Shown piece by piece: positions 11,801 to 39,114 of a DNA stretch of 39,114 nt (its first letter is position 1; each line of letters begins with the position of its first letter). Origin of the DNA: Phycisphaeraceae bacterium (GTDB lineage Bacteria; Planctomycetota; Phycisphaerae; Phycisphaerales; SM1A02); contig PWVT01000090.1 in assembly GCA_003562195.1 (NCBI GenBank), positions 1 through 39,114 on the forward strand, given 5' to 3'. A program made the translations under genes and the position numbers. The notes beneath the pieces were generated by a model. The model did no database searches, had not been told where the DNA came from, and worked only from the letters and a program-made list of their open reading frames with translations.

Positions 11801-11831
11801 CAAGATCATCATGCGGAACATCACTATCCAC
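8805..11831 (-). CDS. Ser/Thr protein kinase with one TM helix, a coiled-coil and a long TPR array
   Basis: Hanks kinase motifs are present: GEGGYGMVY, VALKVLK, HRDLKPGNIL, DFGVAK, GTPEYMSPEQ. A TM segment AAMAAAVAIAAVLLISTIVSMGYAV follows, then about ten repeats of the type LGxDHPxTLxSxNNLGxxLxxxGRxxEAExxYRxAL (TPR_10/12-like). Confidence 0.9.
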   Translation of the reverse strand: MDSDVPHDDLAQSENIWATGEIEPEHHVGDVIGAYEIKKVLGEGGYGMVYLAQQHQPVQRDVALKVLKAGMDSRSIVVRFEAERQTLAMMDHPGVAKVFDAGQTKQGRPFFVMEYVPGVPITRYCDQHRLGLAERLTLFVQVCQAVQHAHSKGIVHRDLKPGNILVCEVNGLPAPKVIDFGVAKALSTSADPKTVFTQQGQLIGTPEYMSPEQADLNEQDIDTRSDVYSLGVVLYELLTGLLPFQTSESTGLVQLQRMVREVDPPRPTTRMRDHHDAATRAKCRQLDHRALLQRVRGDLEWIVMKCLEKDRDRRYVTADALLTDIRRHLNNEPVLAGPPGAAYRFGKFARRNRAAMAAAVAIAAVLLISTIVSMGYAVREAEQRRLAQANETRAIEQSRRAERAAERALAAEAEATQRAEELRTVADFQRSMLVDIDVQLMGTRLREDIVSAGVASWQRAGMGDEAIELRLQNLEALIGGANFTTAAASSLDRNVLAHALQAINREFVDQPTIKAALLESVAETYTTLGDYETALSPRLRALALRRDELGDDHEDTVQLIHATGTLYRHLGRFDEAEKYLEEAINRYTVLGGEDDPRTLRSRCSLTLVLAEQGHFEQAETDSRGVLAARERVFGEDHPETLETVDALGRILHLQGHTDDAEQHYRRALEGRRLALGDHDPETLRSLNNVARILRELGRFPDAEAYFREAKNVLREQFGDNHPQTLYAVNNVGRALREQGRLEEAERMYREAMEGFEQVLGPMHPDTLTTINNMGRVLRALGRMDEAEAHYRRALAGRQELFGPDHTLALSSMNNLGFLMRSLERYDEAEAYFRDALEGLLRVLDESHPNVARATGNLGRVLFDQSRYHDAEPYHIAAIEAFKRAYNESHPETLNAMNNYVTLLQRLERFDEATELGNEVVKLTREAGNTRHLGYYLLNHARTLFALDWYADAEAAMLETHSIHTHEFGPTHARTSGIASELAQLYTAWHAAEPNGGYDQQAMRWAEPE

Positions 11832-15135: not shown

Positions 15136-15481
15136 CGCGAGACATTCTGACGAGTCGAACCGATTTCGCAATATTCTTTCCAGTCCACGCCGAGCGTGTC
15201 TAACCCCGGACTCCATCGATACTTGCAGCAAATCGACCTGCTTATCAAGCTCCATGCTGCAGAAGAAACTGTGAAGCTGCGTAATTTTTCGTCACATGCA
15301 CCGCGCGACGCGCATCTCTGCACATGTGTGGGTGGTAACGTCCACGACCGGAGCAAATCCCGAGGCAGGAACTCCGAGACGAAGGCCCACGCTTGATGTC
15401 ACGACGCTGCCGCGTCGGCTGACAACGGTGTCAGTCTGCCGCAGCGCACGATCAACAGCATGGAATAAGGAACTCAAAAGG

Positions 15482-18044: not shown

Positions 18045-18117
18045 AGCGGGTGACCGGGATCGAACCGGCAACATTCAGCTTGGAAGGCTGACACTCTACC
18101 AATTGAGTTACACCCGC
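18045..18117 (-). tRNA. tRNA-Gly (anticodon UCC)
   Basis: I folded the reverse complement by hand: acceptor GCGGGTG/CACCCGC, D arm ACTC-AATTGGTA-GAGT, anticodon arm TCAGC-CTTCCAA-GCTGA (anticodon TCC), variable loop ATGTT, T arm GCCGG-TTCGATC-CCGGT, discriminator T. It is 73 nt with no encoded CCA. Confidence 0.9.
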
Positions 18118-24088: not shown

Positions 24089-24730
24089 TCACTTGCCCAA
24101 GGCCTTTTCCACACGAGCCAAGAGCCGCCGCTCCATGGCTTCATCGCGTCCCATCGGCACCCAGAACGGACGGTTTTCCGTGACGTCGTCCTCCGGCCCT
24201 GTCGCTGTTGAAGCAGCACGGCGGGTCCATGTGGATCGGCGCAGGCCAGGCCGCTGCAGACGCTCCACATGCACCAGCACCCGAAGCTGCATCGCACCTT
24301 CATACCGGGTGAGATCCGCATCCACCTCGTCTACGGCAAGCAGATCAAGTGCCGCAGCACTGGCCTGATCGTCCGGGGCAAGTAGCGGCATGAACTCGAA
24401 TCGCGCCCGACGACGCTGGTGTCCCAGCGTGCTCTCCAACGTGCGCTGCATCGGCTCGCGCACTGCGTGCCATGGCTCAAGCATCGTCGGTGCGGATGTG
24501 GGTTGTGTCTCGACAACTCCCGCTCGGCGATCGCGAAAACCGCCAACAAGCGACTCTTTACGTGCAGCTTCAATCGCAGCATCGAAGGCATTGTGATACT
24601 CATCATGACTCAGATGCAGTTGGGCAGGTCCAGGTGATGCAGCACACCCGGTCAACACTACGATGAGCAGAACCGACAAGGCGATCATGCAGCGGCCGAT
24701 AACAGCAACAGCAGGGGGAATCACAGCCAT
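24089..24730 (-). CDS. putative lipoprotein, function unknown
   Basis: The ATG at 24730 gives MAVIPPAVAVIGRCMIALSVLLIVVLTGC (signal peptide plus L-T-G-C lipobox). No family recognised. Confidence 0.45.
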   Translation of the reverse strand: MAVIPPAVAVIGRCMIALSVLLIVVLTGCAASPGPAQLHLSHDEYHNAFDAAIEAARKESLVGGFRDRRAGVVETQPTSAPTMLEPWHAVREPMQRTLESTLGHQRRRARFEFMPLLAPDDQASAAALDLLAVDEVDADLTRYEGAMQLRVLVHVERLQRPGLRRSTWTRRAASTATGPEDDVTENRPFWVPMGRDEAMERRLLARVEKALGK

Positions 24731-24861
24731 GAACGAAAGTCTAACCGACCTTTCATTGTGCCGCGCGGGGCCGATACACATCATCTTTGATCACAGATAG
24801 ACAGAAACTCAAGCGTTGACGAGCCGAAAGAAGAGTGTATAGAGTGTTCGCGGAGGATTGA

Positions 24862-25599
24862 ATGAGCCAGTCAACTCGGTATCGACGGAGCGGAGCCATC
24901 GCGGCGTGCGTGATTGGTGCAGGTGTTCTGACTCTGATTGGTACGGAGGTTCTTGGCATTTCCCTTCGCGGCGGAGATCGCGGTACTGGAAGCGGCACAC
25001 AACAGCAATTGCCGACAACGATGGAGGACTTCTTCCAACCGGGCACACAGCCGGATCCTTCAGGTGAAATCGTCCAGCCGATTATTCACTCCAACAATTG
25101 CGTCGCGTGTCACGGGCAATATCTCCTCGATGAAAAGGTCCCTTCCTATGCTGAGGCGTGGGATGGTTGGATCAACAGCATCAAGGGCCACACCGCCCGC
25201 GACCCCATCTGGAAGGCCGCCGTGGCCATTGCCAATCAGGATGCTGCTGGCGCGGGTGAATATTGCATTCGCTGCCATGTGCCCCGCGGCTGGTTGGCCG
25301 GCCGCTCTGAGACTGGGCTTGTCGAAGATCTTGACGATCTGGATTTTGACGGCGTCAACTGCCACTTCTGTCATCGAGTGGTTAACCCCGTCCTGACCAA
25401 AGACAGCCCCAAAGAAGACGGCCCCATCCTCGCCGCATTGGACTTTCCTCCCACCGGCGCTCCCGGCAATGCACGCTGGGTGCTTGATCCCAATGATGTA
25501 CGACGCGGTCCGTTTGACGATGTGCCACTGAATATGCATGGCGAAGCGGACATCATCTTCTCGCCGTTTCATCTTGAATCCGCCATGTGCGGGACCTGA
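24862..25599 (+). CDS. multihaem cytochrome c-like protein, N-terminal part (ends at an in-frame TGA inside a CXXCH motif)
   Basis: GGAGG lies 5 nt before the ATG at 24862, and there is an N-terminal anchor or signal AIAACVIGAGVLTLIG. Three CXXCH motifs are present: CVACH (25099..25113), CIRCH (25264..25278) and CHFCH (25360..25374). The ORF ends ...SAMCGT-TGA. Confidence 0.7.
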   Translation: MSQSTRYRRSGAIAACVIGAGVLTLIGTEVLGISLRGGDRGTGSGTQQQLPTTMEDFFQPGTQPDPSGEIVQPIIHSNNCVACHGQYLLDEKVPSYAEAWDGWINSIKGHTARDPIWKAAVAIANQDAAGAGEYCIRCHVPRGWLAGRSETGLVEDLDDLDFDGVNCHFCHRVVNPVLTKDSPKEDGPILAALDFPPTGAPGNARWVLDPNDVRRGPFDDVPLNMHGEADIIFSPFHLESAMCGT

Positions 25600-25605
25600 C
25601 ATGAT

Positions 25606-26817
25606 GTGAGCAATCCGGTGTTTGAACGCCAACCCGATGGCAGCTTTGCCATTGGCACGTTCGGTCAGCCGCATTCAACGCAAAACACGCACGACATGAT
25701 GCCCGAGCAACGCACGTACAGCGAATGGCTGCATAGTGATTTTGCCAAGGGCGGCGTGTACTTCCCCGATGGTCGTTTCGGTGGCAATCACGACACCGGC
25801 ATCATGCAATCCTGCCAGGACTGTCACATGCCCAAGAAATTCACCGGTGGGTGCAGCTTCTGGGATGTTGATGGGCTGCCGTTCTTCCCGCGCCCGGACA
25901 TGCCCATGCATCACTTCGCAGGCGGCAATACCTGGGTGCTTGGCGCGATCTATGAACTGTACGGCGAGGACATCGGCCTGACGGCTGAATCCGTTGCCGA
26001 TGCCCAGGAACGCACCGCAGACATGCTCCGCGCTGCATCGGATATGGAACTGGACATCATTGATGATGAACTACGCGTACGAATCATCAACTGGTCCGGC
26101 CACAAGTTGCCCACCGGCTACCCTGAAGGCCGCCGCATGTGGGTCAACGTCAAGTTCTATGACGAACAAGACAATGTCGTCAACGAGCACGGCCATTACG
26201 ATTACAAAACTGCGACGCTCTATGGTGACGACACGAAGGTGTACGAGATGAAGCTCGGTATGGATAAAGACGTTGCCGCAGCAACAGGTCTTGAGCCAGG
26301 CAAGTCATTCCACCTCGTGCTCAACAACGTCGTGCTGCTGGACAATCGCATTCCCCCGCCCGGTTTCACCAACGCAGCGTATGAAAGCGTACTCGCTCAG
26401 CCGGTCAACTACTCCTACGAAGATGGCCAGCATTGGGATGACACGCATTTTGATATCCCTGCTGGAGCAACATCAGCGGTCGCGACGCTGTATTTCCAAA
26501 CGACCAGCCGTGAGTACATTGAGTTCCTGCGCGATCAGAACGTCACCAACTTCGATGGCTTCATCGCTTACGACCTGTGGGAATCTCAAGGCCGCAGCGC
26601 ACCGCTGGATATGGTCAGTTCAGTGATTGACCTAGATGTGCAGCCGGGCAACCCGGCTGATCTCAATGGTGACGGCGTGGTGGATGTCTCAGACCTGCTG
26701 ATCCTGCTGTCCAATTGGGGTCCCTGCCCACGTGGCGACACCTGCCTCGGCGACATCAACAAGGACGGCGTGGTCAATGTGTCAGACCTGCTGATTCTGC
26801 TCGGCAATTGGGGATAA
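25606..26817 (+). CDS. multihaem cytochrome c-like protein, C-terminal part with dockerin-like repeats (same frame as 24862..25599)
   Basis: It is in the same reading frame as the upstream ORF and has no RBS or signal peptide of its own. The only nearby start is a GTG two codons after the TGA. It contains CQDCH (25813..25827) and ends with DLNGDGVVDVSDLLILLSNWG..DINKDGVVNVSDLLILLGNWG. Confidence 0.7.
   Translation: MSNPVFERQPDGSFAIGTFGQPHSTQNTHDMMPEQRTYSEWLHSDFAKGGVYFPDGRFGGNHDTGIMQSCQDCHMPKKFTGGCSFWDVDGLPFFPRPDMPMHHFAGGNTWVLGAIYELYGEDIGLTAESVADAQERTADMLRAASDMELDIIDDELRVRIINWSGHKLPTGYPEGRRMWVNVKFYDEQDNVVNEHGHYDYKTATLYGDDTKVYEMKLGMDKDVAAATGLEPGKSFHLVLNNVVLLDNRIPPPGFTNAAYESVLAQPVNYSYEDGQHWDDTHFDIPAGATSAVATLYFQTTSREYIEFLRDQNVTNFDGFIAYDLWESQGRSAPLDMVSSVIDLDVQPGNPADLNGDGVVDVSDLLILLSNWGPCPRGDTCLGDINKDGVVNVSDLLILLGNWG
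25624..25662 (+). other. hairpin downstream of the in-frame TGA (weak SECIS-like candidate)
   Basis: GAACG/CGTTC (25624..25628 with 25658..25662) encloses CCGATGGCA-GCTT-TGCCATTGG (25634..25655), a 9-bp stem with one G-U pair. The apical loop starts 43 nt after the TGA. Confidence 0.2.
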
Positions 26818-26906: not shown

Positions 26907-28076
26907 TCATCCAAACAGCGTGTCGAGCAACTCCACGATGCCTTTGCCCTGTGTCGCAATCGTTTCCTTGATCGGACGGCCGGCGGCGATGTCGAGCAGT
27001 TCGCGCACGAGTTTGCTCTCGCCGGCGAAGTCCGCCTTGTTCACCACGAACACATCGGCAATCTCGAGGATTCCTGCCTTGTCCATCTGCACCGCGTCAC
27101 CCATGCCGGGCACGACGACCACGGCCGTGCGATCCACGTAATCGCGGATCTTCGTTTCATTCTGACCTGCACCGACAGTTTCCACGATCAGTTTGTCATA
27201 ACCGGCGCCACCGATGAGTTCGATGATGGCGGGCAAAGTCGAATAGTCCTCGCCGCTGATCGCCAGCGAACGGTAAAAGACATTTTCATCCAGCGCGTTG
27301 AAATCCACACGCAGGCGGTCGCCAAGTAAGGCGCCGTTCGTGATCGGGCTCATGGGGTCGAAGGCGACAACGGCAATCTTCTCACCCCGCCGCACTGCCT
27401 CGGCAGCCATCGATGCAACAAGTGTCGATTTGCCCGCGCCGGGTGAACCGGTCAGGCCGATGACATCCGCCGGCCGTCTCTTCGGTGCATCGGCCACCTC
27501 GCTTCCGCCGTGGACCAGACTCAGGTTGCGTCCCAGCACGGCGGTGACATGGTCGCTGTTGAGCGGTTCGTACGGCTTGGTGGCTTCGCGCACGCCATCG
27601 ACAATGTCCTGCATGGATGTGCCGGTGTGATACAGCTTGTGCACGCCCGCATCGAGCATGGTCTGAACATCTTCCTGGGGAATGATGCCGCCGACGTTGA
27701 TGACCATGTCCGGCCGACCGACCTTCTTGCACTCTTCAATCAACCGCGGGACCAGTACGAGGTGTGAATTGCTCATCATCGAGCAGGCGATGACATCAGC
27801 GTCCTCATCGCGGGCGGAAATGGCCAGACTACGCGGCGTCTGCCAGAGGCCGGAGTAAATCACGTGGACACCGCTGTCGCGCAACGCGCGGGCGATGAGT
27901 TTGACGCCTCGATCGTGGCCATCTAGGCCCATTTTCCCCAACAAAACGCGCGGGCGATGGCTGAGATCGCCGCAACGATCGAGCTTTTCAACAGCCGTGG
28001 TCGGTTCAGTCGTCGGACTTGGCATAGGACCCGCATGATAGCGGGAGAACAGTCCAGAGGACCGGCTGACGGTCAT
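26907..28076 (-). CDS. fusion of methylmalonyl-CoA-mutase-type B12-binding domain and MeaB/ArgK-like G-protein
   Basis: N-terminal half: RVLLGKMGLDGHDRGVKLIARALRDSG..ADVIACSMMSNSH..GGIIP (DxHxxG cobalamin-binding domain). C-terminal half: GLTGSPGAGKST (P-loop), LLGDRLR, VETVGAGQNE, VVNKADF (NKxD), as in MeaB. Start is uncertain (28025, 28076 or GTG 28094). Confidence 0.85.
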   Translation of the reverse strand: MTVSRSSGLFSRYHAGPMPSPTTEPTTAVEKLDRCGDLSHRPRVLLGKMGLDGHDRGVKLIARALRDSGVHVIYSGLWQTPRSLAISARDEDADVIACSMMSNSHLVLVPRLIEECKKVGRPDMVINVGGIIPQEDVQTMLDAGVHKLYHTGTSMQDIVDGVREATKPYEPLNSDHVTAVLGRNLSLVHGGSEVADAPKRRPADVIGLTGSPGAGKSTLVASMAAEAVRRGEKIAVVAFDPMSPITNGALLGDRLRVDFNALDENVFYRSLAISGEDYSTLPAIIELIGGAGYDKLIVETVGAGQNETKIRDYVDRTAVVVVPGMGDAVQMDKAGILEIADVFVVNKADFAGESKLVRELLDIAAGRPIKETIATQGKGIVELLDTLFG

Positions 28077-28108
28077 TTCTCGACGAACGACCACTTCATT
28101 TTTTTAAT

Positions 28109-28132
28109 GTTTGGACGTTTGGACGTTTGCCG
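28109..28132. repeat. tandem direct repeats GTTTGGAC GTTTGGAC GTTTGCCG in a divergent promoter region
   Basis: Read directly from the sequence. It lies in the roughly 77-bp gap between the B12/MeaB gene (minus strand) and the ABC permease gene (plus strand), preceded by an A/T-rich TTCATTTTTTTAATG. Confidence 0.3.
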
Positions 28133-28153
28133 TTTCGCTACACTGCCCGTCCG

Positions 28154-30034
28154 ATGCGGCTGCGACAACTGCCACAACTGACGCTCATGGTGGGGTTGCT
28201 GGCAATCTTTGCCGTCTTCTTGTTGTATCCCATCTGGCTGACAGTCCAAGGTGGCTTTGAAAGCATAGTGCCGCTCCAGCAGGTACGCCTCGTGGACGGG
28301 CAGCGGCATGTCGGACAGGTCGTGTCCAGAACGGATACTCACATCGTTCTGCGACTGGACGACTCGTCCGTAGAACCTGAGATCTCGATCGAACTGGATC
28401 AGATCGCCGACACCCGCCCGGTCAAACGCTTCACGCTGCACCACATCATCTCCGTCTTTCAGGATGCCTCACTTCGACAGGGGTTGATTACCGCTTTCTT
28501 GGTGGCGGTCTGTACGACCATTCTCTGTTTCTTCCTCGCCCTGCCCCTGGCGCTGCTGGCTGCGAAATTTGATTTTCCCGGCAAGGCCGCGATGTCCTCA
28601 TTGGTGCTGGTGCCGCTGATCCTTCCGCCGTTCGTCGGCGCGATCGGGCTGCATCACATCCTCGGCCGCACCGGGTCGGTCAACACGCTGCTGATGAACA
28701 TGGGGCTGATCGAGAACGGCATCGACTTCATCGGACGCGGCGGGTTCTGGGCGATTGTCATCATCGAAGCGCTGCACCTGTATCCCATTTTGTACCTCAA
28801 CGCCACAGCCGCGCTGGCCAACCTGGACCCGGCGCTTGAAGAAGCAGCGGAGAACCTCGGCGCCAGCCGCTGGCGGCGGTTCCGCACGGTCATCCTGCCA
28901 TTGATCCGCCCCGGGCTGTTTGCAGGCGCAACGATCGTGTTCATCTGGTCGTTCACTGAACTTGGCACGCCGCTGATGTTTGACTATCAGGTCATCACGC
29001 CGGTGCAAATTTTCAACGGCATCATGGAGATGGACACCTCGCGCCAGCCGTATGCACTGACGGCGATCATGCTTTTCTCTGCGGTGTTCTTTTACATCCT
29101 CGGCAAATTGGTGTTCGGCGGCAGAGCGTATGCGATGTATGCAAAAGCATCGGTGCAATCAGTGACGACAAAGCTCACAGGCATCAAGGGCCTGCTGGCT
29201 GCGGGCGGTTTCGCACTGGTGATTGCCCTGGCGATCACACCACACTTCGGCGTGATCCTCGCTTCGCTAACGGTGGAGGGCAGTTGGTATCAATCTGTGC
29301 TGCCGGCGGCCTTCACGACGGAACACTACACCAACGCACTCGGCCACTCACTGGCGATCGGGTCAATCCGCAACAGTTTGTTCTATGCGACCTGCGCGGT
29401 GCTGATCGACATCCTGCTTGGCATCATGATCGGCTACCTCATCGTGCGCACGCGCATTCCAGGTCGTGGGCTGCTGGATTCATTGTCGATGCTGCCGCTG
29501 GCGGTGCCGGGGCTGGTGATGGCATTCGGGTATGTCGCCATGACGCTGCGTTGGCCATTCGGCAAGGGTGACCCGCTGGAGGGTTGGATTGATGTGCTTG
29601 GTGCAGAGCCAAACCCGATCTTGCTGTTGATCATTGCGTATGCAATTCGCCGCCTGCCGTATGTCGTTCGCGCGACGGTTGCTGGGTTGCAGCAGACTTC
29701 CGGCGAGCTTGAAGAAGCGGCATTGAGCATGGGCGCAAGCCGCGCACGGGCGATCCGCACGATCACGGTGCCGCTGATCACTGCGAACCTGATTGCAGGC
29801 GGCCTGCTGGCGTTCAGCTTCGCCATGTTGGAAGTGTCCGATTCATTGATCCTCGCGCAGCGCGAAGAACACTTCCCGATCACCAAGGCGATTTATGTAC
29901 TGTTTGAACGACTCGGCGACGGCCAGTACATCGCCAGCGCCATGGGCGTGTGGGGCATGGCGCTGCTTGCGGTGACGCTCGTGGGCGCGTCGATCATGAT
30001 GGGCAAGAAGATGGGCGCAATCTTCCGGGTCTAG
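28154..30034 (+). CDS. ABC transporter permease with two fused permease domains (FbpB/ThiP-type)
   Basis: About 12 hydrophobic helices and two EAA loops: LEEAAENLGASRWRRFRTVILPLIRPG and LEEAALSMGASRARAIRTITVPLITAN. ATG at 28154 (track start 28127 is a TTG). Confidence 0.85.
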   Translation: MRLRQLPQLTLMVGLLAIFAVFLLYPIWLTVQGGFESIVPLQQVRLVDGQRHVGQVVSRTDTHIVLRLDDSSVEPEISIELDQIADTRPVKRFTLHHIISVFQDASLRQGLITAFLVAVCTTILCFFLALPLALLAAKFDFPGKAAMSSLVLVPLILPPFVGAIGLHHILGRTGSVNTLLMNMGLIENGIDFIGRGGFWAIVIIEALHLYPILYLNATAALANLDPALEEAAENLGASRWRRFRTVILPLIRPGLFAGATIVFIWSFTELGTPLMFDYQVITPVQIFNGIMEMDTSRQPYALTAIMLFSAVFFYILGKLVFGGRAYAMYAKASVQSVTTKLTGIKGLLAAGGFALVIALAITPHFGVILASLTVEGSWYQSVLPAAFTTEHYTNALGHSLAIGSIRNSLFYATCAVLIDILLGIMIGYLIVRTRIPGRGLLDSLSMLPLAVPGLVMAFGYVAMTLRWPFGKGDPLEGWIDVLGAEPNPILLLIIAYAIRRLPYVVRATVAGLQQTSGELEEAALSMGASRARAIRTITVPLITANLIAGGLLAFSFAMLEVSDSLILAQREEHFPITKAIYVLFERLGDGQYIASAMGVWGMALLAVTLVGASIMMGKKMGAIFRV

Positions 30035-30129
30035 GTGCGCCATCGGTGCGCCGTGATCAACTGGCTTTGGTCGCGTCAAAATCACTGCTATGATGATGTG
30101 CAACACTCGAGCCAACCGGAGGTGGACGC

Positions 30130-32115
30130 ATGCGCCACATCGTTGTGTTCCTGACAGTCCTGCTTCTCAGCAGTATGACGTTCGCAATTGGTGACGTCCA
30201 CAATGCGGCTACGCATTACAACCGGGCGTTCGAGCATCTGCATCGACTTACCGAAAATGAGCGTATTCTGCTCAGCTACCCCGAGAATCCGACCGCCCCG
30301 CCATCACCTGAGATGCGCGAGGCATTGCGAAAGATGCAACCAGCCCTGCATCATGTTCGCGAAGCTTCCAGACGCCCCTACGCAGATTTTCCGCTTGACT
30401 TCAACGAGGGCTGGTTCCTGCGGCTTCCGCCGCTGCACGATATGCGAACACTGCTCAGTGTGACCTACGCAGACGTGCGCATGCGAGTGCATGACGGGGA
30501 GACAACCATGGCGGCTAAACGGCTGGCCACGGCCTATCGCACGCTACCGCATTTGAGCGACAGCGGCGTCATCATCGCCTCGGTCGTGAACCAGGCTGGC
30601 TTTCATCTGTTGGACGACGCGACGCAGTTTCTGATAGACCAAGGCGCACTCAATGCGGCGGATGCATTGACGGTGTTTCACGCAGTCGATGAATTTGCGG
30701 CACAGACCGACCCGTTCAATCACATCGAAGCCATTCTCGGTGACAGTGAACTGAACTACATCACCGCGCGAAATTTTCTTGAGAGTGGGGAACATGACAT
30801 TCGTGAACTCTTTGGCGATTCCATCGATCCAGAAGGCGTTGACCAGTGGCATAATTTGACCGAAGAGCGACTCGACAATCACATTGCGGCTCATGATGTG
30901 TTCATTGAGGATATGACCGCAGCTTTTGCCATGGACGACCCCGAAGCAGCCGCGGCAGAAGTAGCAAGGTTGCAGGAAGCGTTTCTTGAGAGTGACAACC
31001 TCTTTGCCCATTTGGCACCTTCATATACCACCTATCATGAACGCAAGATCAGGGCAGAGGCCGCTCTGGCTGCACGTGTGCAGTCGCTGCGTGAACTGGT
31101 TGATGGCGATGTGGAGCCGCTGGAACGCGCCAATGCGGCGATGTGGTATCTGCGAGCCGTCGCCGCGCTCGAATCACTCGAACCGGAACAACTCGAAACG
31201 TTGCGAGCGGCTGACCTGGACTGGCATGAACCGTTGCCCGATGAGCTTGTTTCCCTTCTTGAGACGCACCAGCCGATTGTCGAGCTGTTTCACGATGGAT
31301 CTCGCATTCGCCGATGCGACTTCACCTTCACCCGCCGCCATCGCCCGCATCCATTCATGCCGAGTTATGCGCCGGGAATGCGCGATGGTCTGCGACTGCT
31401 GTGTGCCGATGCAGTACGTTTGATGCGCGCGGATCAGCCCGAAGACGCGGCGGAACGACTGGCGACTGCCTACCGCGTCATTGCCCACCTTGCGGGTGAT
31501 GATCAAATCGTCAGCGCACTGACCAGTCATGTGTCGTACCGGCATGTGCACAATCTCATTGAACTCGCCCTCGACACGGAGTTGTTTGATCAATCACAAT
31601 TGGAGTCGCTGTACGTCGCGTTTGATCGCATCGCGCTTGCTGATCCGTTTGGTTACACGAATGCCATCGCCCTGGCGCGGTCACGGCTAATTGACCAGTT
31701 TCACAACCGAAGGCCGTTGCGAGATGAGTTTGCTGATCAGGTTGAGCCATGGAGTCGTGTCGTACAAGAAGCTGATGGTGACCGGCTGCTCGGCTTGCTG
31801 CTCATGAGCGAGATGATTGATCCTCCAAATCTCCCGATGCAACTGCACGATCATCTCGTCTCGCTCGATGATGTCATGCCCCACGCTGGGGTTGAGACCC
31901 TATACGGGCAAATTGAAGCGTTGGCCGAACTCATTGCGGAGGGCGATATTGAAGCGGCTCGCGAGGCCGTACAGGCCGTGGCTGACGTTGATCGTCGCCG
32001 GGGCGAAGCGCGCAGCGACTTGCGGCGGGGATTGATGATGTTCCAAGTGAACCTCGGATCGACGCCGCGCCCGCGCGATGATGCCGTGGCTGATTCCGGA
32101 GAAGCTGATGAATAG
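30130..32115 (+). CDS. secreted, internally duplicated helical-repeat protein, unknown family (paralog A)
   Basis: GGAGG lies 7 nt before the ATG. Signal peptide MRHIVVFLTVLLLSSMTFAIG. It shares motifs with the next two genes: NAATHYxRA, QPALHH, ANAAxWYLR, GSxIRRCDF, PGMRD, AERLAxxYR, ADPFGY. Confidence 0.75.
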   Translation: MRHIVVFLTVLLLSSMTFAIGDVHNAATHYNRAFEHLHRLTENERILLSYPENPTAPPSPEMREALRKMQPALHHVREASRRPYADFPLDFNEGWFLRLPPLHDMRTLLSVTYADVRMRVHDGETTMAAKRLATAYRTLPHLSDSGVIIASVVNQAGFHLLDDATQFLIDQGALNAADALTVFHAVDEFAAQTDPFNHIEAILGDSELNYITARNFLESGEHDIRELFGDSIDPEGVDQWHNLTEERLDNHIAAHDVFIEDMTAAFAMDDPEAAAAEVARLQEAFLESDNLFAHLAPSYTTYHERKIRAEAALAARVQSLRELVDGDVEPLERANAAMWYLRAVAALESLEPEQLETLRAADLDWHEPLPDELVSLLETHQPIVELFHDGSRIRRCDFTFTRRHRPHPFMPSYAPGMRDGLRLLCADAVRLMRADQPEDAAERLATAYRVIAHLAGDDQIVSALTSHVSYRHVHNLIELALDTELFDQSQLESLYVAFDRIALADPFGYTNAIALARSRLIDQFHNRRPLRDEFADQVEPWSRVVQEADGDRLLGLLLMSEMIDPPNLPMQLHDHLVSLDDVMPHAGVETLYGQIEALAELIAEGDIEAAREAVQAVADVDRRRGEARSDLRRGLMMFQVNLGSTPRPRDDAVADSGEADE

Positions 32116-34150
32116 CTGGCGAAAGTTCGTTGTCATAACGATTGCTGCACTCGCATGCTGTTCGTATGTATTCGGCCATGATGGTGGCTATCGAAATGCA
32201 GCGAAGCATTATGAGCGTGCCTTCGAGCGGTATGTCGCATTGTCAAGCGATGATCGGTCGTTGCTCTTGAACTTCGACATAGCAAGCACGCCGCCCACGC
32301 AGGAGATTCGCGATGCGATGCGCCGCGCCCAGCCGATTCTGAATGATTTTCATCGCGCGTCGCTCCAGCCGTACTCAGATTTCCACTTGGATTACAACCA
32401 GGGGTTCAACCTGGTCATCCCCCACGTTGTGCACATGCGCAACATTGTACGTTTGGCAAAGGCGGACGTGCAACTGCGTCTGGCTGATGGTGATTCAGCT
32501 GGAGCAGCCGATCGCCTTGCTGCGATGGGGCGCAATCTTCAACACTACAACGATGATCGGCTCCTGATCAGCAGTCTTGTGAACAGCGCGGTGTACGCAC
32601 TGGTTGACGACACGATCCAGCATGGCCTTGATGCTGCCGCTTTCGATCCCGCTGAAGCATTGAAGATTCTGCAGCCGCTGGAACAACTCAACGCAACGGG
32701 CGACCCGTTCGGTTATCGCGATTCCATCGCAACCGAACAGGACTGGATCGTAATGGCCATGACCGATGCATTCGAAAATGATCGCATGTCCGAAACGCTC
32801 GATCTGATCTGGGTGCCCGATGATGATCACGCCGACCCTACCCGCGATGCATGGAATGCTTTGAAGCAAGATGAATTCGAGTTGCATGTGGCGGCATACG
32901 ACCAGTTCATGGATGGAGTCGTTGAAGTCTTTGCAATGGACGATCCGGACCTTGCAGCGGAGAAGATGACGGAATTTTCGGATGCATTTGTCGACTCCGA
33001 GTACAACCTCTTCGCCACCGTCATCATCAGCTACAATCACATCCTGCGTTCTAAGCATCACAGCGAACGATTGTTGCAGGATCGCATCAGCGACTTGCGA
33101 GATCTGGTTGAGGGTGAGGTTGACGCGCACGCCATCGCCAACGCGGCGGTCTGGTACCTGCGCGGCATCACCTTGCTGAGCGATCTGGATGAGGACGCCA
33201 CAAAGTTACTTCGGGAGGATCATCTCTGGGATACACCGTTGCCCGACGAGCTTGTACAAATGCTCCGTGACACGGCCCAGCCGATCATTCATGAGTTTCG
33301 CATGGGGTCAGAGATACGACGTTGTGATTTTTCCATCGCACGATCGCTTGAGTACCCGCTCATCCCCCGCTACACACCCGGCATGCGCGATGCGTTTCAC
33401 CTACTTCACGCTGATGCCATTCGCTTGATGCACGCAGATGAGCTTGAAGACGCCGCTGAGCGCCTAGCGATCTGCTACCGCATGATCGGACACCTTGGAC
33501 GTGATGCTCAACTGATCAGCGGACTTGTGTCACACACTGCATTTGAACATACACATCTGTTGGTCGAAGCCACCATTGAAGCCGAGCAGTTTACAACTCA
33601 ACAGATTCGAACGGTCGGTGCAGCATTTGACCGCATCGGTCGGGCTGATCCATTCGGCTATGCTGCTGCCGTGCGCATGACGAGACAGGACATTGGCAAG
33701 ACGGCAGAGAATCTTGCTCGCCGAATTGACGCTGATCCGAAAGAGCGGCGCTACCAGATACTCCAGCAGATCATCACTCACGGTCCCCCGGACCAATTGC
33801 TGACGCTCCTGGCCTTGCACGATGCGTACCTGCGACACCGCGAGCAAGAGCTTTTTGAGGCGGGGCACCTGCCCGCCGAGCTGAAAACGACGGTCGTTGA
33901 ACACGATGCACTGATGGACGTGGTCAGCATTGACGATCTGAGCACACTGCGCAATGAAGCCCAACTGGCAATCGCTTCCATGGTCAACACCCCACCATCA
34001 GATGCTGATGCGCACATGTTCGATGGATTAACCACGTTTACGGATATCAACGCCCGCATGCAGCAGGCGCGTGCTGTGCTGCGTATCGGAGCAGCCATGT
34101 TCCATCTCACCACTGCTGCATCGGACACTGAAGAAAGCGATCCGTCATGA
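32108..34150 (+). CDS. secreted, internally duplicated helical-repeat protein, unknown family (paralog B)
   Basis: The ATG at 32108 (GGAG 6 nt upstream) overlaps the stop of paralog A by 8 nt. Signal peptide MNSWRKFVVITIAALACCSYVFG. Same motif set as paralogs A and C. Confidence 0.75.
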   Translation: MNSWRKFVVITIAALACCSYVFGHDGGYRNAAKHYERAFERYVALSSDDRSLLLNFDIASTPPTQEIRDAMRRAQPILNDFHRASLQPYSDFHLDYNQGFNLVIPHVVHMRNIVRLAKADVQLRLADGDSAGAADRLAAMGRNLQHYNDDRLLISSLVNSAVYALVDDTIQHGLDAAAFDPAEALKILQPLEQLNATGDPFGYRDSIATEQDWIVMAMTDAFENDRMSETLDLIWVPDDDHADPTRDAWNALKQDEFELHVAAYDQFMDGVVEVFAMDDPDLAAEKMTEFSDAFVDSEYNLFATVIISYNHILRSKHHSERLLQDRISDLRDLVEGEVDAHAIANAAVWYLRGITLLSDLDEDATKLLREDHLWDTPLPDELVQMLRDTAQPIIHEFRMGSEIRRCDFSIARSLEYPLIPRYTPGMRDAFHLLHADAIRLMHADELEDAAERLAICYRMIGHLGRDAQLISGLVSHTAFEHTHLLVEATIEAEQFTTQQIRTVGAAFDRIGRADPFGYAAAVRMTRQDIGKTAENLARRIDADPKERRYQILQQIITHGPPDQLLTLLALHDAYLRHREQELFEAGHLPAELKTTVVEHDALMDVVSIDDLSTLRNEAQLAIASMVNTPPSDADAHMFDGLTTFTDINARMQQARAVLRIGAAMFHLTTAASDTEESDPS

Positions 34151-36135
34151 AGAGTCTCACGATACACGTGTTTCTTGTGATGATACTGGCAACGCCCGCT
34201 GCGGCGCAGAACGACCATGCCAATGCAGCGACGCATTATCAGCGTGCGATTGATGTGATGGAATCGCTCTCGTGGGATGAGCACAACACCTTCTGGGAGT
34301 ACTACGGCCCGACGTTTTCACCAACCCAGGAACTTCGCGATGCGCTGCGCAAGGCGCAGCCCGCCCTCCATCATTTCAACCGTGGCACTCTGCAAGAATA
34401 TTCCCATTTCAATCTGGACGTTGGCAACGGTGTCGAAATTCCTACATCGCACCTCATGAATTTGCGCAAACTTGCCATGGCGAGCCGGGCTGATGTCAGT
34501 CTACGATTGCACGATGGCGACACCAGCGGGGCAGCCAACCGCATCGCCGCTATGAACCGGTCCATGACGCATTTTCAGGATGATCGCATGTTGGTGAGTT
34601 CGCTCGTCGGCGTTGCGATCAGTGTGTTCACAGACAACTTGATCGAAACCGGACTCGACCATGCAGCGTTTGACCCAAGTGATCTGTTGAGAATGCTGCA
34701 TCCTCTCGAACAGTTCATGGAAAGCAGCGACCCCTTCGGATTCGTCGAGAGTCTTGCGGCCGAACGGGACGCCACATTGATGTTGCTCAATGAAGGAACC
34801 AATGTTGACGGGATCAATGCCAGAGTGCTGACCATGTGGTCTGGCAGTGACACACTCGATCAAGAGCAATTTGACACCTTGTCTAATGACGAATTGTCGC
34901 GACACGTCGATGCATACGACACAACGATGGACGACATCATCGACGCGTTCACGATGGCAGACCGAGAGACCGCTTCGGCCGTCATGGCTGAGATTCAATC
35001 ATCCTTTCTTGAATCGGAACAGAATCTGCTGGCCCCACTCATCGTCATTTACGCCAAGGCGATGGAAAGTCGCAACCTTGCGGAATCAACCGTGCAGGAT
35101 CGCATCACGATGATGCGCGAGCTTCTTGACGATGACGTTGACGCTGTGGACATTGCCAATGCTGCCGTGTGGTACTTGCGTGGCGTAACCGCACTTGACG
35201 AACTGGATGATGACATGCTGACCTCCCTTCGCGAAATGGACATGGCGTGGGACAGCGAGGTTCCGGAGTCGGTCGACACACTTTTACGAGGCAGTGGTGC
35301 ACAGGTCATTGAGCACGTTCGGACCGGATCGAACATTCGTCGCTGCGACTTTTCCATTGCACGCATTTGGTACGATCATCCGCCAATCCCTCACTACGTA
35401 CCGGGCATGCGCGACCTGTTTCGGCTATTGCACGCTGATGCCATTCGCATGATGCAGGTCGGTGAGATTGATGCGGCGGCGGAACGTTTGGCAATCTGCT
35501 ACCGTGTGGTCGATCACCTCAGCGGTGACGGCCAAATGCTCAGTTCGCTCCTTGCACATACCGCCTACGAACATACACACCTGCTCGTCGACTTCGCCAC
35601 GTTTGACAATCGATGGAACCCAGAGCATGTGTACGCTCTGGCTGCAGCGTTCGATCGACTGGGCAGGGCTGACCCTTTCGGGTACGGGCGTGCGTCGTCC
35701 GCCATGCGGGACATGGCTTCAAAGGTGCATCACTACTATGGTGCAAACCGGGTCGTGGACGATGATGACCTTCCTGTAAAATTTGAGAAGTTGCAGTTCA
35801 TGACCGCAGATGAAGCTCTCGCGTTGCTGCAGTTTCACGATGTGATTGAACAGCGACGGCGAGTTCACCTTGCTGAGCACGGTGAATGGGTGCCACCGGA
35901 CACCTCACCGGAATTCTCAATCAACGCACTTCAGGATGTGATCGCACTTGATCGTTTGACAGCATTGTGCAAACAATCAAAGTCAATCAGCAACGAAATG
36001 TTGCAAGAGGCATTCGATTACTCCGAGTTCCCACCATTAATCACATTCACCGAAATCCCAACGCGCATGCAGCAAGCGCGGGATGCGCTGCGTATTGGTG
36101 CAGCCATGTTTCAGCACGCAGGTGATGAGTCCTAG
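34147..36135 (+). CDS. secreted, internally duplicated helical-repeat protein, unknown family (paralog C)
   Basis: ATGA start/stop overlap with paralog B (34147..34150). Signal peptide MKSLTIHVFLVMILATPAAAQ. Same motif set; closest to paralog B. Confidence 0.75.
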   Translation: MKSLTIHVFLVMILATPAAAQNDHANAATHYQRAIDVMESLSWDEHNTFWEYYGPTFSPTQELRDALRKAQPALHHFNRGTLQEYSHFNLDVGNGVEIPTSHLMNLRKLAMASRADVSLRLHDGDTSGAANRIAAMNRSMTHFQDDRMLVSSLVGVAISVFTDNLIETGLDHAAFDPSDLLRMLHPLEQFMESSDPFGFVESLAAERDATLMLLNEGTNVDGINARVLTMWSGSDTLDQEQFDTLSNDELSRHVDAYDTTMDDIIDAFTMADRETASAVMAEIQSSFLESEQNLLAPLIVIYAKAMESRNLAESTVQDRITMMRELLDDDVDAVDIANAAVWYLRGVTALDELDDDMLTSLREMDMAWDSEVPESVDTLLRGSGAQVIEHVRTGSNIRRCDFSIARIWYDHPPIPHYVPGMRDLFRLLHADAIRMMQVGEIDAAAERLAICYRVVDHLSGDGQMLSSLLAHTAYEHTHLLVDFATFDNRWNPEHVYALAAAFDRLGRADPFGYGRASSAMRDMASKVHHYYGANRVVDDDDLPVKFEKLQFMTADEALALLQFHDVIEQRRRVHLAEHGEWVPPDTSPEFSINALQDVIALDRLTALCKQSKSISNEMLQEAFDYSEFPPLITFTEIPTRMQQARDALRIGAAMFQHAGDES

Positions 36136-37685
36136 CGAATGTATCGCAAGCGGCCGAAGTCGGGAATGACCGGCGTCCCATCATCGCGCAGCGGGTACAT
36201 CGCTGGGAAGTACACCACCCACGCCTTGCCCAGCAGCAGGTCCCGGTGTACAACGAACGGGCTGTCATCCACCTGAGCGGCCACAAACGGGTGTGGGCTG
36301 CCCCACAGACGCGAGTCGAGTGAGGCCTGGCTGTTGTCGCCAAGCATGTAGAACTGATCGTCACCCAACACCGCGAGGTTGTCCGGATGGGTGCCAAAGG
36401 CCTCGCCACGAATAGTCGGCTCATTGCGCTGTTGATTCTCTTCGAGTGTCGCTGCGCGGTAGTACAGGTCGCGATCAATGCTGACACGGTGAAGCGTCAC
36501 CGGCGAGCCAACAAAATGCCATCGCACCTGAGACTCTTCAACCGCTCCATTGCGTGCCGCAACCTGTGCTCGACGGTCTTCCATCCCCGTGGCAGATTCG
36601 ATACGTTGCTGAGGCGTCCATTCGTAATCAAGACGCACGACTTCGCGATTGTCAACGAAAATGCGCATCGACTGGTCAACGTGCCAGAACTCGACGTTTC
36701 GCACACGTCCGGGTCGTGCTGCGCGAATCGATTGTGATTGCGAATCGATCCACTGTCCTTCCGGATCATCAGCATCGCGAAATCGAACAGTCGCTTCATC
36801 ACTGGTCATGGTGAACTCGAATATGTGGCTCCGCGCGAATAGCTCGAGCCGCGTGGTCAGCCCCTCCTGATCGGGCACGATACCGGCGACAATGCGCAGA
36901 TCGCTCACAGGGATCAACCCGGGCGAGCGTTGACCGAGAAGGTTATATGATGCCCAGTCATCCAAGCGCATTTCGCGCATGTCCCATTCGAGCATCGTTG
37001 CTGCCGCCTCGTCGGTACGGTAGCTGCGACCGGACGTATCCCATGCCTCACCACGCCAAGGGGGGCCAGCGTAATGCCGGTCGAGTCGTCCGGGGTCGAC
37101 AACGGCATAGTTACTGTGATGAATCGGCTGCCACAGCGCACGCTGCACGTGAACTGGTTTGCGCTGAATGGAAAATCGCGACTCATCATCGCCCATGGCA
37201 AAGACATCACCATCGGCAATCCACACGGTTTCATTGGGCAGGCCGATGAGACGCTTGATGTAATTGCCCGCCTCACCCTTTGGGTCAGTAGGGTTCTTGA
37301 AAACCACGACGTCATAGCGCCGTGGCTCGCTGAACGAGTACAGGCCCTTGAGCACGAGAATGCGATCGCCTGCGCGAGGTCGGCCGGTCGTCGGATGCAC
37401 GCGCGGCCGGCCGACGGGATAATTGCGGCCGAGCATCGGGTCGAGTACCTCATCAAAGTTCGGCCGTCGTTGGTCCAGACCCGCTGGAAAGTTGTAACCG
37501 GTCAGCGTCGAGTGCAGTTCAACATGGGCTCCCATAAGCGTCGGTGCCATGGAACCGGTGGGAATCACAAACCCCTCCGCAACAAAGCCACGAAACGTCA
37601 TCGCCAGCACGAATGCGACAATGAGCGACTGGAGCGTGTCAACCACGCCTGAGTCAGCGTGCAGCGGTGGTGTCTGAGAATCCAT
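36132..37685 (-). CDS. lepB: signal peptidase I (large form with insertion)
   Basis: An N-terminal TM helix is followed by the catalytic Ser box IPTGSMAPTL, the Lys box YIKRLIGLPNETV, and the GDNSQASLDSRLWG box (GDNxxxSxDSR). Confidence 0.85.
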   Translation of the reverse strand: MDSQTPPLHADSGVVDTLQSLIVAFVLAMTFRGFVAEGFVIPTGSMAPTLMGAHVELHSTLTGYNFPAGLDQRRPNFDEVLDPMLGRNYPVGRPRVHPTTGRPRAGDRILVLKGLYSFSEPRRYDVVVFKNPTDPKGEAGNYIKRLIGLPNETVWIADGDVFAMGDDESRFSIQRKPVHVQRALWQPIHHSNYAVVDPGRLDRHYAGPPWRGEAWDTSGRSYRTDEAAATMLEWDMREMRLDDWASYNLLGQRSPGLIPVSDLRIVAGIVPDQEGLTTRLELFARSHIFEFTMTSDEATVRFRDADDPEGQWIDSQSQSIRAARPGRVRNVEFWHVDQSMRIFVDNREVVRLDYEWTPQQRIESATGMEDRRAQVAARNGAVEESQVRWHFVGSPVTLHRVSIDRDLYYRAATLEENQQRNEPTIRGEAFGTHPDNLAVLGDDQFYMLGDNSQASLDSRLWGSPHPFVAAQVDDSPFVVHRDLLLGKAWVVYFPAMYPLRDDGTPVIPDFGRLRYIR

Positions 37686-37783
37686 GAGCGAAATGGTAGG
37701 GGGTAACGTTCAAACGGCCAAACATCGAAAGGAAGAGCGAACGAGCAACGTATTGAAATGTGGCACTCCTGTGTGAGCTGCGG

Positions 37784-39114
37784 TCACCCTTCGGATTGAC
37801 CGCCTGTACCACCATCGCCCGGGCGTTTTCTTCGTCTGCGGCGACGCTTGCGCTTGGGCTTGGGTGCACCATCTGCCTGATCGCCTGCCTGCGGCTTGCT
37901 CGCTTGCGGATCGCTGGTTTGCTGTGCCTCGCCACCTCCACCGCCTTTGCGTCGTCTGCGGCGTCGCTTCCGCTTGGGTTTTTCTTCCCCGGGCACCTCG
38001 GCTTGACTCTCGCCGTCGCCCAGTTGCTGTGACTGTTCACGGAAGCTGTCCTGCTGCTGCGTCTTGGATTTGCCTTTGCTACGACGGCTGCGCTTTCGTT
38101 TTCCGCGTTTACCGTCGTCGGTACGGTCCGCCACTTCCTGTGCAGACAGCCCGCGCAGCGGGTCACTCTCGCGTTCGCGCTCCCGTTGCTCCGCATCGCG
38201 CTTGGCCTGCGCCTCGCCCGGCGTGGGACAGGTGTCCGGGTCCATCAATTCCTCGACCGGCACAGCGATCTCACGACCGTCATGCTCTAAACGTACCAGC
38301 ACTAGCTGTACGAGAATCTTCGTCTCCAGCACGATACCCGGCCCTTCACTGGTGCCAACACGCTTCTTGAGCTTCGGCAGATTCTTCCGCAGCTCCTTGT
38401 ACGTCTGGTCCTCGTAGCGCAGGCAGCACATCAGCCGCCCACAGCGGCCGGAAATCTTCAGTGGATCAAGCGTGGCCTTCTGCGTCTTCGCAGCACGCAT
38501 GGAAACCGGCTTGAGCACCTTGAGAAAGTTCTTGCAGCAACAATGCTGGCCGCAGCGTTCGTAATCAGCCACAAGGCGGGCCTCATCGCGCGCCCCCACC
38601 TGGCGCATTTCGATGCGGGCCTTGAACTGGCTGGCCAGATCGCGGACAAGATCACGGAAGTCCACCCGGTCTTCTGACATGTAATAGAACGTCAGCAGTT
38701 CCTCGCCGAGGATCGGCTCGACATCCACGAGTTTCATCGGCAGCTTGTACTGCGTGATCAACGCCTTGCACGCCTTGGTGTATTCCGGCTTGCGATTGTT
38801 CAGTTCCGATTGGCGGTTGAGATCATCGATGGTGGCGACGCGGAGAATCTTGCCCTTGGTTTGAAACGGGTAATCCTTGCCGCCGGAATTCTCGATGTAC
38901 TCGAGCATCTCCTTGCGGGTGACGGACTTGCCGCAGCCGGCGTTCTCGCACGTGGTCGTGAGCATCTCGACCACCTCGGTCCCGCGGAGCGTGCGGGCGA
39001 CGAGTTTGGAGCCGCAGCCGGGCTTGGCCGAGCCGTGATACGGAAACTCGCCGACCAGCTTCATCGAGCCGTACTTGACGACGATGGTCTTGGGTGGCTC
39101 GATGCGCTCGTAGA
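37784..39114 (-). CDS. PSP1 C-terminal domain protein (YaaT/RicT-like) with poly-basic tail; 5' end outside the window
   Basis: VDFRDLVRDLASQFKARIEMRQVGARDEARLVADYERCGQHCCC ... ISGRCGRLMCCLRYE is the PSP1 domain signature. The frame stays open to the window edge (YERIEPPKTIVVKYGSMKLVGEF...), so the true start is probably beyond 39114. Confidence 0.8.
   Translation of the reverse strand, partial: YERIEPPKTIVVKYGSMKLVGEFPYHGSAKPGCGSKLVARTLRGTEVVEMLTTTCENAGCGKSVTRKEMLEYIENSGGKDYPFQTKGKILRVATIDDLNRQSELNNRKPEYTKACKALITQYKLPMKLVDVEPILGEELLTFYYMSEDRVDFRDLVRDLASQFKARIEMRQVGARDEARLVADYERCGQHCCCKNFLKVLKPVSMRAAKTQKATLDPLKISGRCGRLMCCLRYEDQTYKELRKNLPKLKKRVGTSEGPGIVLETKILVQLVLVRLEHDGREIAVPVEELMDPDTCPTPGEAQAKRDAEQRERERESDPLRGLSAQEVADRTDDGKRGKRKRSRRSKGKSKTQQQDSFREQSQQLGDGESQAEVPGEEKPKRKRRRRRRKGGGGGEAQQTSDPQASKPQAGDQADGAPKPKRKRRRRRRKRPGDGGTGGQSEG

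Follow-up and report, generated by a model that had tools for sequence, protein, structure and literature searches.

A tandem trio of internally duplicated proteins, predicted to be exported and all-helical, belongs to a large unannotated family of Planctomycetota

The α-solenoids (TPR, SEL1, HEAT and Armadillo repeats) are all-α proteins of antiparallel helices that in bacteria are often periplasmic adaptors. Here we describe three consecutive genes in a 39,114-nucleotide (nt) stretch of a contig of a Phycisphaeraceae bacterium (GenBank PWVT01000090.1; this whole stretch is referred to as the window), the products of which resemble the α-solenoids in this architecture but differ from them in their repeat: solenoids have a short-period repeat, whereas in the trio a unit of ~310 amino acids (aa) occurs exactly twice. 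Closer still are hypothetical proteins that belong to the same family (MCH8164979.1, MCI0629543.1, NNF43825.1, and IH830_05535 of GCA_022566535.1), which are matched over their full length by the family profile (E 1e-90 to 1e-284), and which share with the trio a length of 640–720 aa, a signal peptide, two units, and the motifs NAAxxY, RCDF, HxxxD and DPFG. They differ from the trio only in copy number and neighbourhood, and none is named, domain-annotated or described. A more remote sister family resembles the trio in having a copy of the unit, in which the corresponding position is again a Cys, but has one unit and not two, a transmembrane anchor in place of a cleaved signal peptide, and an extra C-terminal domain. 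We refer to the three window genes as A, B and C, and to any member gene of the family at a locus as X. An original prediction, made from the sequence alone, had described A, B and C as translationally coupled paralogs of an unrecognised family.

Each of the three proteins consists of two homologous units of ~310 aa that derive from an old duplication. When a 14-sequence family alignment was split at A residue 325/326 and the halves were compared by hhalign, the N-half matched the C-half with a probability of 99.8% (E 2e-30, 301 columns), and the ~200-residue cores alone matched with E 3e-32. The 23 N- and C-modules from 12 proteins give a near-gapless alignment in which nine residues are the same in all 23: the Asn, two Ala and Tyr of NAAxxY, a Phe, an Arg, a His, and the Asp and Pro of DPF. 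An internal duplication had been predicted in part from the heptapeptide RLATAYR, said to occur in both halves of A with different codons, and this is exact: it is encoded as CGG CTG GCC ACG GCC TAT CGC at 30520–30540 and as CGA CTG GCG ACT GCC TAC CGC at 31456–31476, with four synonymous differences. BLASTN detected no DNA repeat between the two halves of any one gene, and nucleotide similarity is confined to equivalent parts of different paralogs (67–92% identity over 26–506 nt). Nor was a shorter repeat found inside the module, as hhalign comparisons of the module with itself, whole and piecewise, gave best off-diagonal E values of 0.1–0.6; a hidden short-repeat architecture was therefore rejected, and the unit is one helical domain of ~200 aa followed by a variable helical tail of ~100 aa, not a TPR/SEL1/HEAT array. 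The unit of ~300 aa is a stand-alone evolutionary module: in P0184, a remote relative of 543 aa, the complete N-half profile has a single match (probability 98.4%, E 9e-15).

Structure prediction with AlphaFold2 gave a model of B (from 12 sequences) with a mean predicted local distance difference test score (pLDDT) of 85.8 and a predicted template-modelling score (pTM) of 0.81, and a model of the B C-terminal core alone (from 23 module sequences) with pLDDT 91.6 and pTM 0.87; both are all helical as assigned by DSSP. Foldseek searches of the PDB returned no neighbour either for whole B (best E 0.48, TM-score <0.17) or for the module (best E 2.0, TM-score ≤0.44, to a designed helical protein), and nothing was returned from BFVD. 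There was no meaningful match in Pfam, for A, B and C at E≤1 or for 53 diverse members at E≤0.01, nor in NCBIfam for A, B and C, and no match at E≤0.1 in PADLOC or PHROGs that would place the family among anti-phage defence or phage proteins. Profile searches of PDB sequences were empty at E≤10 when built on 12 sequences, and a 53-sequence profile brought up nothing but noise (E 0.03). Matches of A residues 585–620 to cytochrome b562 and SbsC (E 0.02–0.06) were likewise dismissed as noise, and a literature search found nothing relevant. By the tests available, the family lies outside every known family, as had been predicted, and is new both as a protein family and as a fold; a confident match to TPR, SEL1 or HEAT, the outcome named as counting against that prediction, was looked for and did not occur.

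The six modules of the trio had also been described as copies of one module, which is borne out as regards their homology but not as regards the equivalence of the two units, the C-unit being conserved far more strictly at the signature positions, which are polar. Conservation was counted in 169 full-length family members, and positions are given in B numbering. In the C-unit, N345 and Y350 are each conserved in 99%, R405 in 91%, F408 in 96%, H462 in 95%, D466 in 93%, and D514-P-F-G in 91–98%, with D514 itself at 98%. The single conserved Cys that the original prediction had picked out in the RRCDF motif of the C-terminal copy, C406, is Cys in 168 of the 169 members, with Ser as the lone exception. 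In the N-unit, N30, Y35 and D199 are conserved in 97–99% and H146 in 89%, and the position equivalent to the Cys is occupied by Ser in 88 members, by Cys in 31 and by Ala in 27. Every C-unit signature residue is present in A, B and C of the window. The N-unit of A is the most degenerate of the six, with Ala85 for Ser/Cys and Ser145 for Asp in its own numbering, and the A C-unit is intact. A near-invariant lone Cys in a protein predicted to be exported, accompanied by a His and an Asp, suggests a functional thiol, and it may serve as a nucleophile, as a ligand to a metal or cofactor, or in a defined intermolecular disulfide. In the B model, DSSP assigns isolated bridges at N30 and at Y89; these two may pair with each other, in which case the Asn of NAA would sit beside the (S/C)DF motif. 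NAA, D-P and the Asp after His lie at helix boundaries in the secondary structure of the module model. A likeness of F-x-x-G-S-x-I-R-R-C to the Cys pocket of cytochrome P450 was rejected, since the spacing is two residues off and there is no match to a P450 hidden Markov model (HMM).

All three genes are genuine and evolve under purifying selection. The ratios of nonsynonymous to synonymous substitution rates (dN/dS) are 0.17, 0.20 and 0.15 for A, B and C respectively when compared with the colinear contig at locus L005, where the ortholog of A is 91% identical; compared with locus L008 they are 0.15 for A and 0.19 for B, synonymous sites being saturated for C. All three pairs align colinearly over their full length by BLASTP (A and B with 36% identity, E 1e-127; B and C with 41%, E 4e-165; A and C with 33%, E 9e-104), so that they are paralogs as proposed. 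The open reading frames (ORFs) and both start–stop overlaps were predicted correctly, that between A and B being ATGAATAG (32108–32115) and that between B and C being ATGA (34147–34150), and the start of B is preceded by GGAG at a distance of 5 nt. A longer reading of B, 690 aa from 32078, was dropped because its orthologs, P0002 among them, begin at the counterpart of the Met encoded at 32108. The packing of A, B and C is so tight that the trio is almost certainly co-transcribed and translationally coupled, and close spacing is also kept in the orthologous trios of L005 (an overlap of 8 nt or a gap of 8 nt) and L008 (an overlap of 1 nt). Consensus scans for promoters and terminators gave matches no more numerous than in shuffled sequence.

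All three N-termini consist of a basic n-region, a hydrophobic run of 12 residues or more and a c-region of small residues, a layout that recurs throughout the family and that agrees with the signal peptides originally predicted for each. Putative cleavage points are TFA/IG in A, VFG/HD in B and AAA/QN in C, and no transmembrane-like segment is present beyond the signal peptide in any of the three. These features point to export of A, B and C via Sec and signal peptidase I (SPase I). Export by the twin-arginine (Tat) pathway was excluded because the twin-Arg motif is absent, and a lipoprotein signal was rejected, there being no proper lipobox ahead of the N-terminal Cys in B and in the family members P0003 and P0004. 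The mature proteins have isoelectric points of 4.7–4.8, and each is an acidic, all-α protein of about 70 kDa, in keeping with the character first ascribed to them. Coordinates of these and other features are collected in Table 1.

Table 1. Coordinates of the trio, its units and other features; positions are those of the window unless a locus is named.
Feature	Position	Strand	Basis or remark
GGAGG Shine-Dalgarno-like site, 7 nt before A start	30118..30122	+	read from sequence
Gene A, 661 aa, signal peptide and two homologous units	30130..32115	+	ORF, BLASTP to B and C
A predicted Sec/SPase I signal peptide, MRHIVVFLTVLLLSSMTFA then IGD	30130..30186	+	hydropathy, n/h/c layout; cleavage site by eye
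A N-unit core, aa 21-235, NAATHY to DPFNH	30190..30834	+	alignments, hhalign
A C-unit core, aa 331-549, NAAMWY, RRC396DF, H453, D457, D505-PFGY	31120..31776	+	alignments, hhalign
Gene B, 680 aa, start overlapping the stop of A	32108..34150	+	ORF, sequence, ortholog start
B predicted signal peptide, MNSWRKFVVITIAALACCSYVFG then HDG	32108..32176	+	n/h/c layout; low-pLDDT N-terminal helix in model
B N-unit core, aa 26-240	32183..32827	+	hhalign, module alignment
B C-unit core, aa 341-560, N345, Y350, R405-C406-D407-F408, H462, D466, D514-P-F-G	33128..33787	+	
Gene C, 662 aa, start overlapping the stop of B	34147..36135	+	ORF, sequence, BLASTP
C predicted signal peptide, MKSLTIHVFLVMILATPAAA then QND	34147..34206	+	n/h/c layout
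C N-unit core, aa 22-235	34210..34851	+	residue mapping
C C-unit core, aa 334-553, C400 in RRCDF	35146..35805	+	residue mapping
Fused two-domain ATP-binding cassette (ABC) importer permease (2 x BPD_transp_1)	28127..30034	+	Pfam, NCBIfam; 95 nt upstream of A
Signal peptidase I, 517 aa, convergent	36132..37685	-	Peptidase_S26 E 1e-24, TIGR02227
P0184 (one-unit relative)	L042 45-1676		
P0185-type genes, two adjacent, near PspA and PspC genes	L043 1163-2554 and 2800-4182		
FIST N+C protein	5124-6659	-	
Ser/Thr kinase, 1008 aa, TPR_12/TPR_10 repeats	8805-11831	-	
tRNA-Gly(TCC)	18045-18117	-	
BatA+VWA protein	20105-22045	-	

The family is large, and in this respect the description of it as unrecognised needs correction: it has no annotated match, but its members are already in the databases as 'hypothetical protein'. 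A profile search of 1.84 billion cluster representatives returned 4967 with E≤1e-3; 1454 of these reach E≤1e-10, and 471 reach E≤1e-30. The best 150 matches are nearly all of 640–720 aa and matched end-to-end, with E values down to 1e-284. A word-indexed homolog search had given only 11–12 proteins; the exhaustive profile search shows this low count to reflect a limit of sensitivity, and the notion of a very rare family was rejected. All of the source names retrieved are hypothetical proteins of metagenome-assembled genomes (MAGs) of Phycisphaerales, Phycisphaerae or Planctomycetota. When one genome of each GTDB species was scanned with a 12-sequence alignment, 30 loci were obtained, all of them in MAGs. 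Nearly all bear a Planctomycetota label; the two exceptions, a 3.8-kb 'Deltaproteobacteria' contig and 'Vicinamibacteraceae isolate PLA1', are suspected to be binning errors. Several MAGs have multiple loci, with four in MT5bin.16. The family is best described as specific to Planctomycetota and lies mostly in Phycisphaerales.

To survey gene neighbourhoods, ORFs around X were clustered for the window together with 35 non-redundant loci, and the recurrent neighbours were annotated. Three contexts recur. In 12 of the 35 loci, X (1–3 copies) is followed by a convergent long SPase I gene, often then by PSP1/RicT, and the gene upstream of X is the permease in three of these loci and a divergent nitroreductase in others. 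In 7 loci, genes for PilM, PilO and a T2SSE-type ATPase are followed by DUF456 and nitroreductase genes on the other strand and then by X, which thus lies two genes from the PilM/PilO/T2SSE cluster. In about 6 loci, the order is a CitMHS/TrkA-C transporter, an M20 peptidase, X (1–3 copies), TruA, UvrB and a TlpA-like redoxin. Because the adjacency of X and SPase I survives changes on both outer sides, it is the most stable pairing, although, being convergent, SPase I is not in the same operon as X; the evidence for a functional link between the two is weak. In the window, the stops of C and SPase I interlock in CTAG (36132–36135), and an overlap of the 3' ends of X and a convergent SPase I gene is also seen at L004 (12007–12010) and L005 (6138–6175). 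The window SPase I is unusually long, and its S26 HMM matches are split between about aa 105–166 and aa 437–462, which implies a large insertion between the catalytic boxes, and its homologs in related loci are 507–558 aa long. The original prediction had remarked that the trio follows an ABC permease, and had raised the question of whether this or SPase I is a constant neighbour. In the window, the permease indeed precedes A on the same strand, but as a rule for the family this fails, the permease lying upstream of X in only 3 of the 35 loci (the window, L004 and L012); SPase I is the commonest neighbour but not a constant one. The best NCBIfam matches of the window permease, none of which reaches the cut-off, are to molybdate, sulfate and aminoethylphosphonate types, and neither an ATPase nor a binding-protein gene adjoining it was found with Pfam or NCBIfam.

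The sister family of one-unit relatives (P0184/P0185 type) comprises Planctomycetota proteins of ~460–560 aa with a transmembrane anchor and one unit of ~300 aa; its 74 retrieved members are all hypothetical. Their C-terminal domain has the motif YR..G.YP..L..L.P.DPF.G.P...Y...LYS.G.D..DDGG, which resembles the globular part of GspG, a pseudopilin of the type II secretion system. The Pfam family T2SSG matches P0185 and its neighbouring paralog with E 2–3e-3, below threshold (18–19 bits against a cut-off of 21), and P0184 has no Pfam match. A, B and C themselves have no T2SSG match and carry ordinary SPase I-type signal peptides, so that they do not have the marks of pseudopilins. Taken together, the SPase I and PilMNO/T2SSE neighbours and the GspG-like tails form a weak but coherent indication of an envelope or secretion theme.

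The explanation that we consider on balance probable, without strong conviction, is that of an exported two-unit helical family in which the units have diverged. The polar set of the C-unit (Asn, Tyr, Arg-Cys-Asp-Phe, His-x3-Asp and Asp-Pro-Phe-Gly) would form one pocket centred on a free thiol, and the N-unit would be a relaxed, partly degenerate copy that acts mainly as a structural partner, giving a pseudo-dimer in one chain, such that the two units would differ in role. More specifically, we tentatively propose that the proteins could be periplasmic accessory factors that bind or modify exported envelope or secretion substrates via the Cys/His/Asp site, a function that is possible though doubtful. 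The tandem paralogs might then have different specificities, or might assemble as a hetero-oligomer in a ratio fixed by translational coupling. The most far-reaching version, in which a new all-α fold carries a new periplasmic thiol site, intact in the C-unit and decayed in the N-unit, and makes up, with the one-unit relatives, a Planctomycetota-specific machinery for envelope or pilus-like substrates alongside SPase I, we think distinctly unlikely. Several considerations weigh against an accessory role of this kind. Homology searches give the proposed function no backing, and the single pocket would follow from residue conservation, not from model coordinates. The Asn before helix 1, the Asp-Pro before a helix and the Asp after the His are classic helix caps and could be conserved for structural reasons. 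The adjacency of X and SPase I could be synteny inherited within one order, the SPase I gene is convergent and not co-transcribed with X, and the position of other loci among housekeeping genes (TruA, UvrB, M20 peptidase) argues against a dedicated operon partner. Finally, the T2SSG matches of the remote relatives lie below the Pfam threshold.

Two other readings of the same residues have to be weighed. The helix positions of NAA, DPF and HxxxD, at starts and ends, would suit purely non-catalytic helical proteins that act as scaffolds or chaperones in the periplasm or at the cell surface. In these, the polar residues would cap helices or form buried salt bridges, and an intermolecular disulfide through the Cys would link protomers (A-B-C, or homomers where X is single-copy). 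The all-α fold, with a pseudo-dimeric chain modelled at pTM 0.81, is in keeping with this, as is translational coupling, which favours stoichiometric complexes; such a disulfide would agree with the lone conserved Cys of an exported protein, and a TlpA-like periplasmic thioredoxin is encoded a few genes off in 6 loci. However, the strict asymmetry of the units is hard to explain by the needs of folding alone, because both units share one fold, and many genomes have single-copy loci; we regard this scaffold role as rather unlikely. That the invariant residues are polar (Cys in 168/169, His in 95%, Asp in 93–98%) is odd for a mere scaffold and would fit enzymes, in which the C-unit is an all-α thiol enzyme with a Cys-His-Asp-type centre acting on polysaccharide, peptidoglycan or protein and the N-unit is a pseudo-enzyme; the tandem paralogs would differ in substrate, and the polymer would be extracellular or periplasmic. 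The presence of Ser, Cys or Ala at the equivalent place in the N-unit is a pattern that nucleophile positions can show, active-plus-degenerate duplicated pairs are common among enzymes, and the Phycisphaerae are known polymer degraders. Against this, the family has no likeness to any hydrolase or lyase family or fold by Pfam or Foldseek. There is no Pfam match to the (α/α)n toroid lyases and glycoside hydrolases, none of which is among the best 50 Foldseek matches per search, and the papain- and transglutaminase-like Cys-His-Asp hydrolases are matched neither in fold, which here is all-α, nor by any HMM or Foldseek hit. Among the known Cys-His-Asp enzymes the fold is α+β and not all-α. The neighbourhoods, moreover, are of a housekeeping kind and not like polysaccharide-utilisation loci, and the proximity of Cys, His and Asp is hypothetical, coming from sequence conservation only. 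An enzymatic role is, in our view, unlikely.

Two further possibilities fare worse. Were the module a divergent TPR, SEL1, HEAT or Armadillo repeat, its novelty would be only apparent, and it is the case that the top Foldseek matches, weak and non-significant, are to karyopherins, APC subunits and importin-α. Yet no superposition is significant (TM-score ≤0.44, E≥0.48), Pfam gave no TPR/SEL1/HEAT match in either of the searches described above, and the 34–47-residue periodicity of helix pairs is absent along with any internal sub-repeat (hhalign best E 0.1–0.6), so that we hold this to be highly improbable. It has also to be asked whether the trio might provide unconventional substrate-binding components of the upstream fused-permease ABC importer, given the same strand, the 95-nt gap, the lack of a canonical binding-protein or ATPase gene beside the permease, and the recurrence of the permease–X adjacency in L004 and L012. 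An ATPase gene adjoining X was found neither in the window nor in the loci with annotated neighbours. Since most members of the family lie beside unrelated genes, with the permease at so few loci, and since the fold is all-α and not two-lobed α/β, with no match to substrate-binding proteins in Pfam or NCBIfam, this role was rejected on distribution and fold and is extremely improbable. A gene upstream of the L012 permease, which the window has as well (24092–24784, minus strand), is lipoprotein-like by eye and was also rejected as a candidate binding protein.

The cell envelopes and division of Planctomycetota, above all of Phycisphaerae, are unusual and poorly understood, and their exported proteome is mostly unannotated. 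The family numbers hundreds to thousands of clusters, and its confidently predicted fold has no match. Its domain grammar is clear, with either two units on their own or a single unit that bears a pseudopilin-like tail, and its Cys, in proteins predicted to be exported, hardly varies. It is thus a well-defined target for a Pfam or DUF (domain of unknown function) entry, and it lends itself to structural work and to mutagenesis of a simple kind. A catalytic thiol site would represent a new enzyme class, and a functional link to signal peptidase or pili would make the family a lineage-specific component of bacterial protein export. Should both ideas fail, it would be just one of the many lineage-restricted families without a known function that metagenomes contain.

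The history of the trio can be followed in related loci. In a neighbour-joining (NJ) tree, A, B and C of the window each cluster with their positional counterparts in L005 and L008, which implies that the triplication predates those lineages. A separate clade of loci of the CitMHS/TrkA-C context (L014, L017 and L020) has its own positionally orthologous trio in the NJ tree, so that expansion to three tandem copies took place at least twice; independent expansion to 2–3 copies is seen in L014, L017, L020 and L022. Arrays of 1–3 copies are common in the family, and occur at several loci per genome. At L004, a 74-aa ORF (9757–9981) just upstream of a single B-like copy encodes a shortened A-like N-terminus, with the signal peptide and NAAAHYQRAFERM (tblastn E 5e-11), and L004 is therefore a decayed tandem array. 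The window (29989–39112) and L005 (1–9121) are colinear but show mosaic divergence, with 93–95% nucleotide identity over A and 90–95% over the PSP1 core, but only 54–80% at about 32689–38088 (the C-half of B, all of C, lepB and the PSP1 tail). Synonymous divergence (dS) rises from 0.27 in A through 0.99 in B to 1.65 in C, and dN/dS stays at about 0.15–0.2 throughout. This looks like either a recombination or allelic-replacement tract of ~5.4 kb that includes SPase I, or a chimera of metagenome assembly.

Elsewhere in the window, an Rfam scan found one tRNA and nothing else, and about ten further ORFs of 230–535 aa have no Pfam match. Beyond SPase I, 37784–39064 (minus strand) encodes a PSP1/RicT-family protein with a long Lys/Arg/Gly-rich C-terminal tail that contains repeated KPKRKRRRRRRK stretches. 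Upstream of the permease, a single ORF at 26907–28094 (minus strand) joins a MeaB-type GTPase (Pfam E 3e-51) to a B12-binding domain (Pfam E 6e-21), and such a fusion gene is also found beside the permease in L004. Two adjacent paralogous ORFs at 24862–25599 and 25606–26817 (plus strand) have a main body without a Pfam family, and the second has a CQDCH (CxxCH-like) motif and two terminal dockerin/EF-hand-like repeats (GDINKDGVVNVSDLLILLGNWG). A reprolysin-like M12B metallopeptidase with a C-terminal dockerin is encoded at 15296–17935 (plus strand), and a second reprolysin-like protein is encoded at L006 (12074–14437, minus strand), where its gene is the next one downstream of the family gene.

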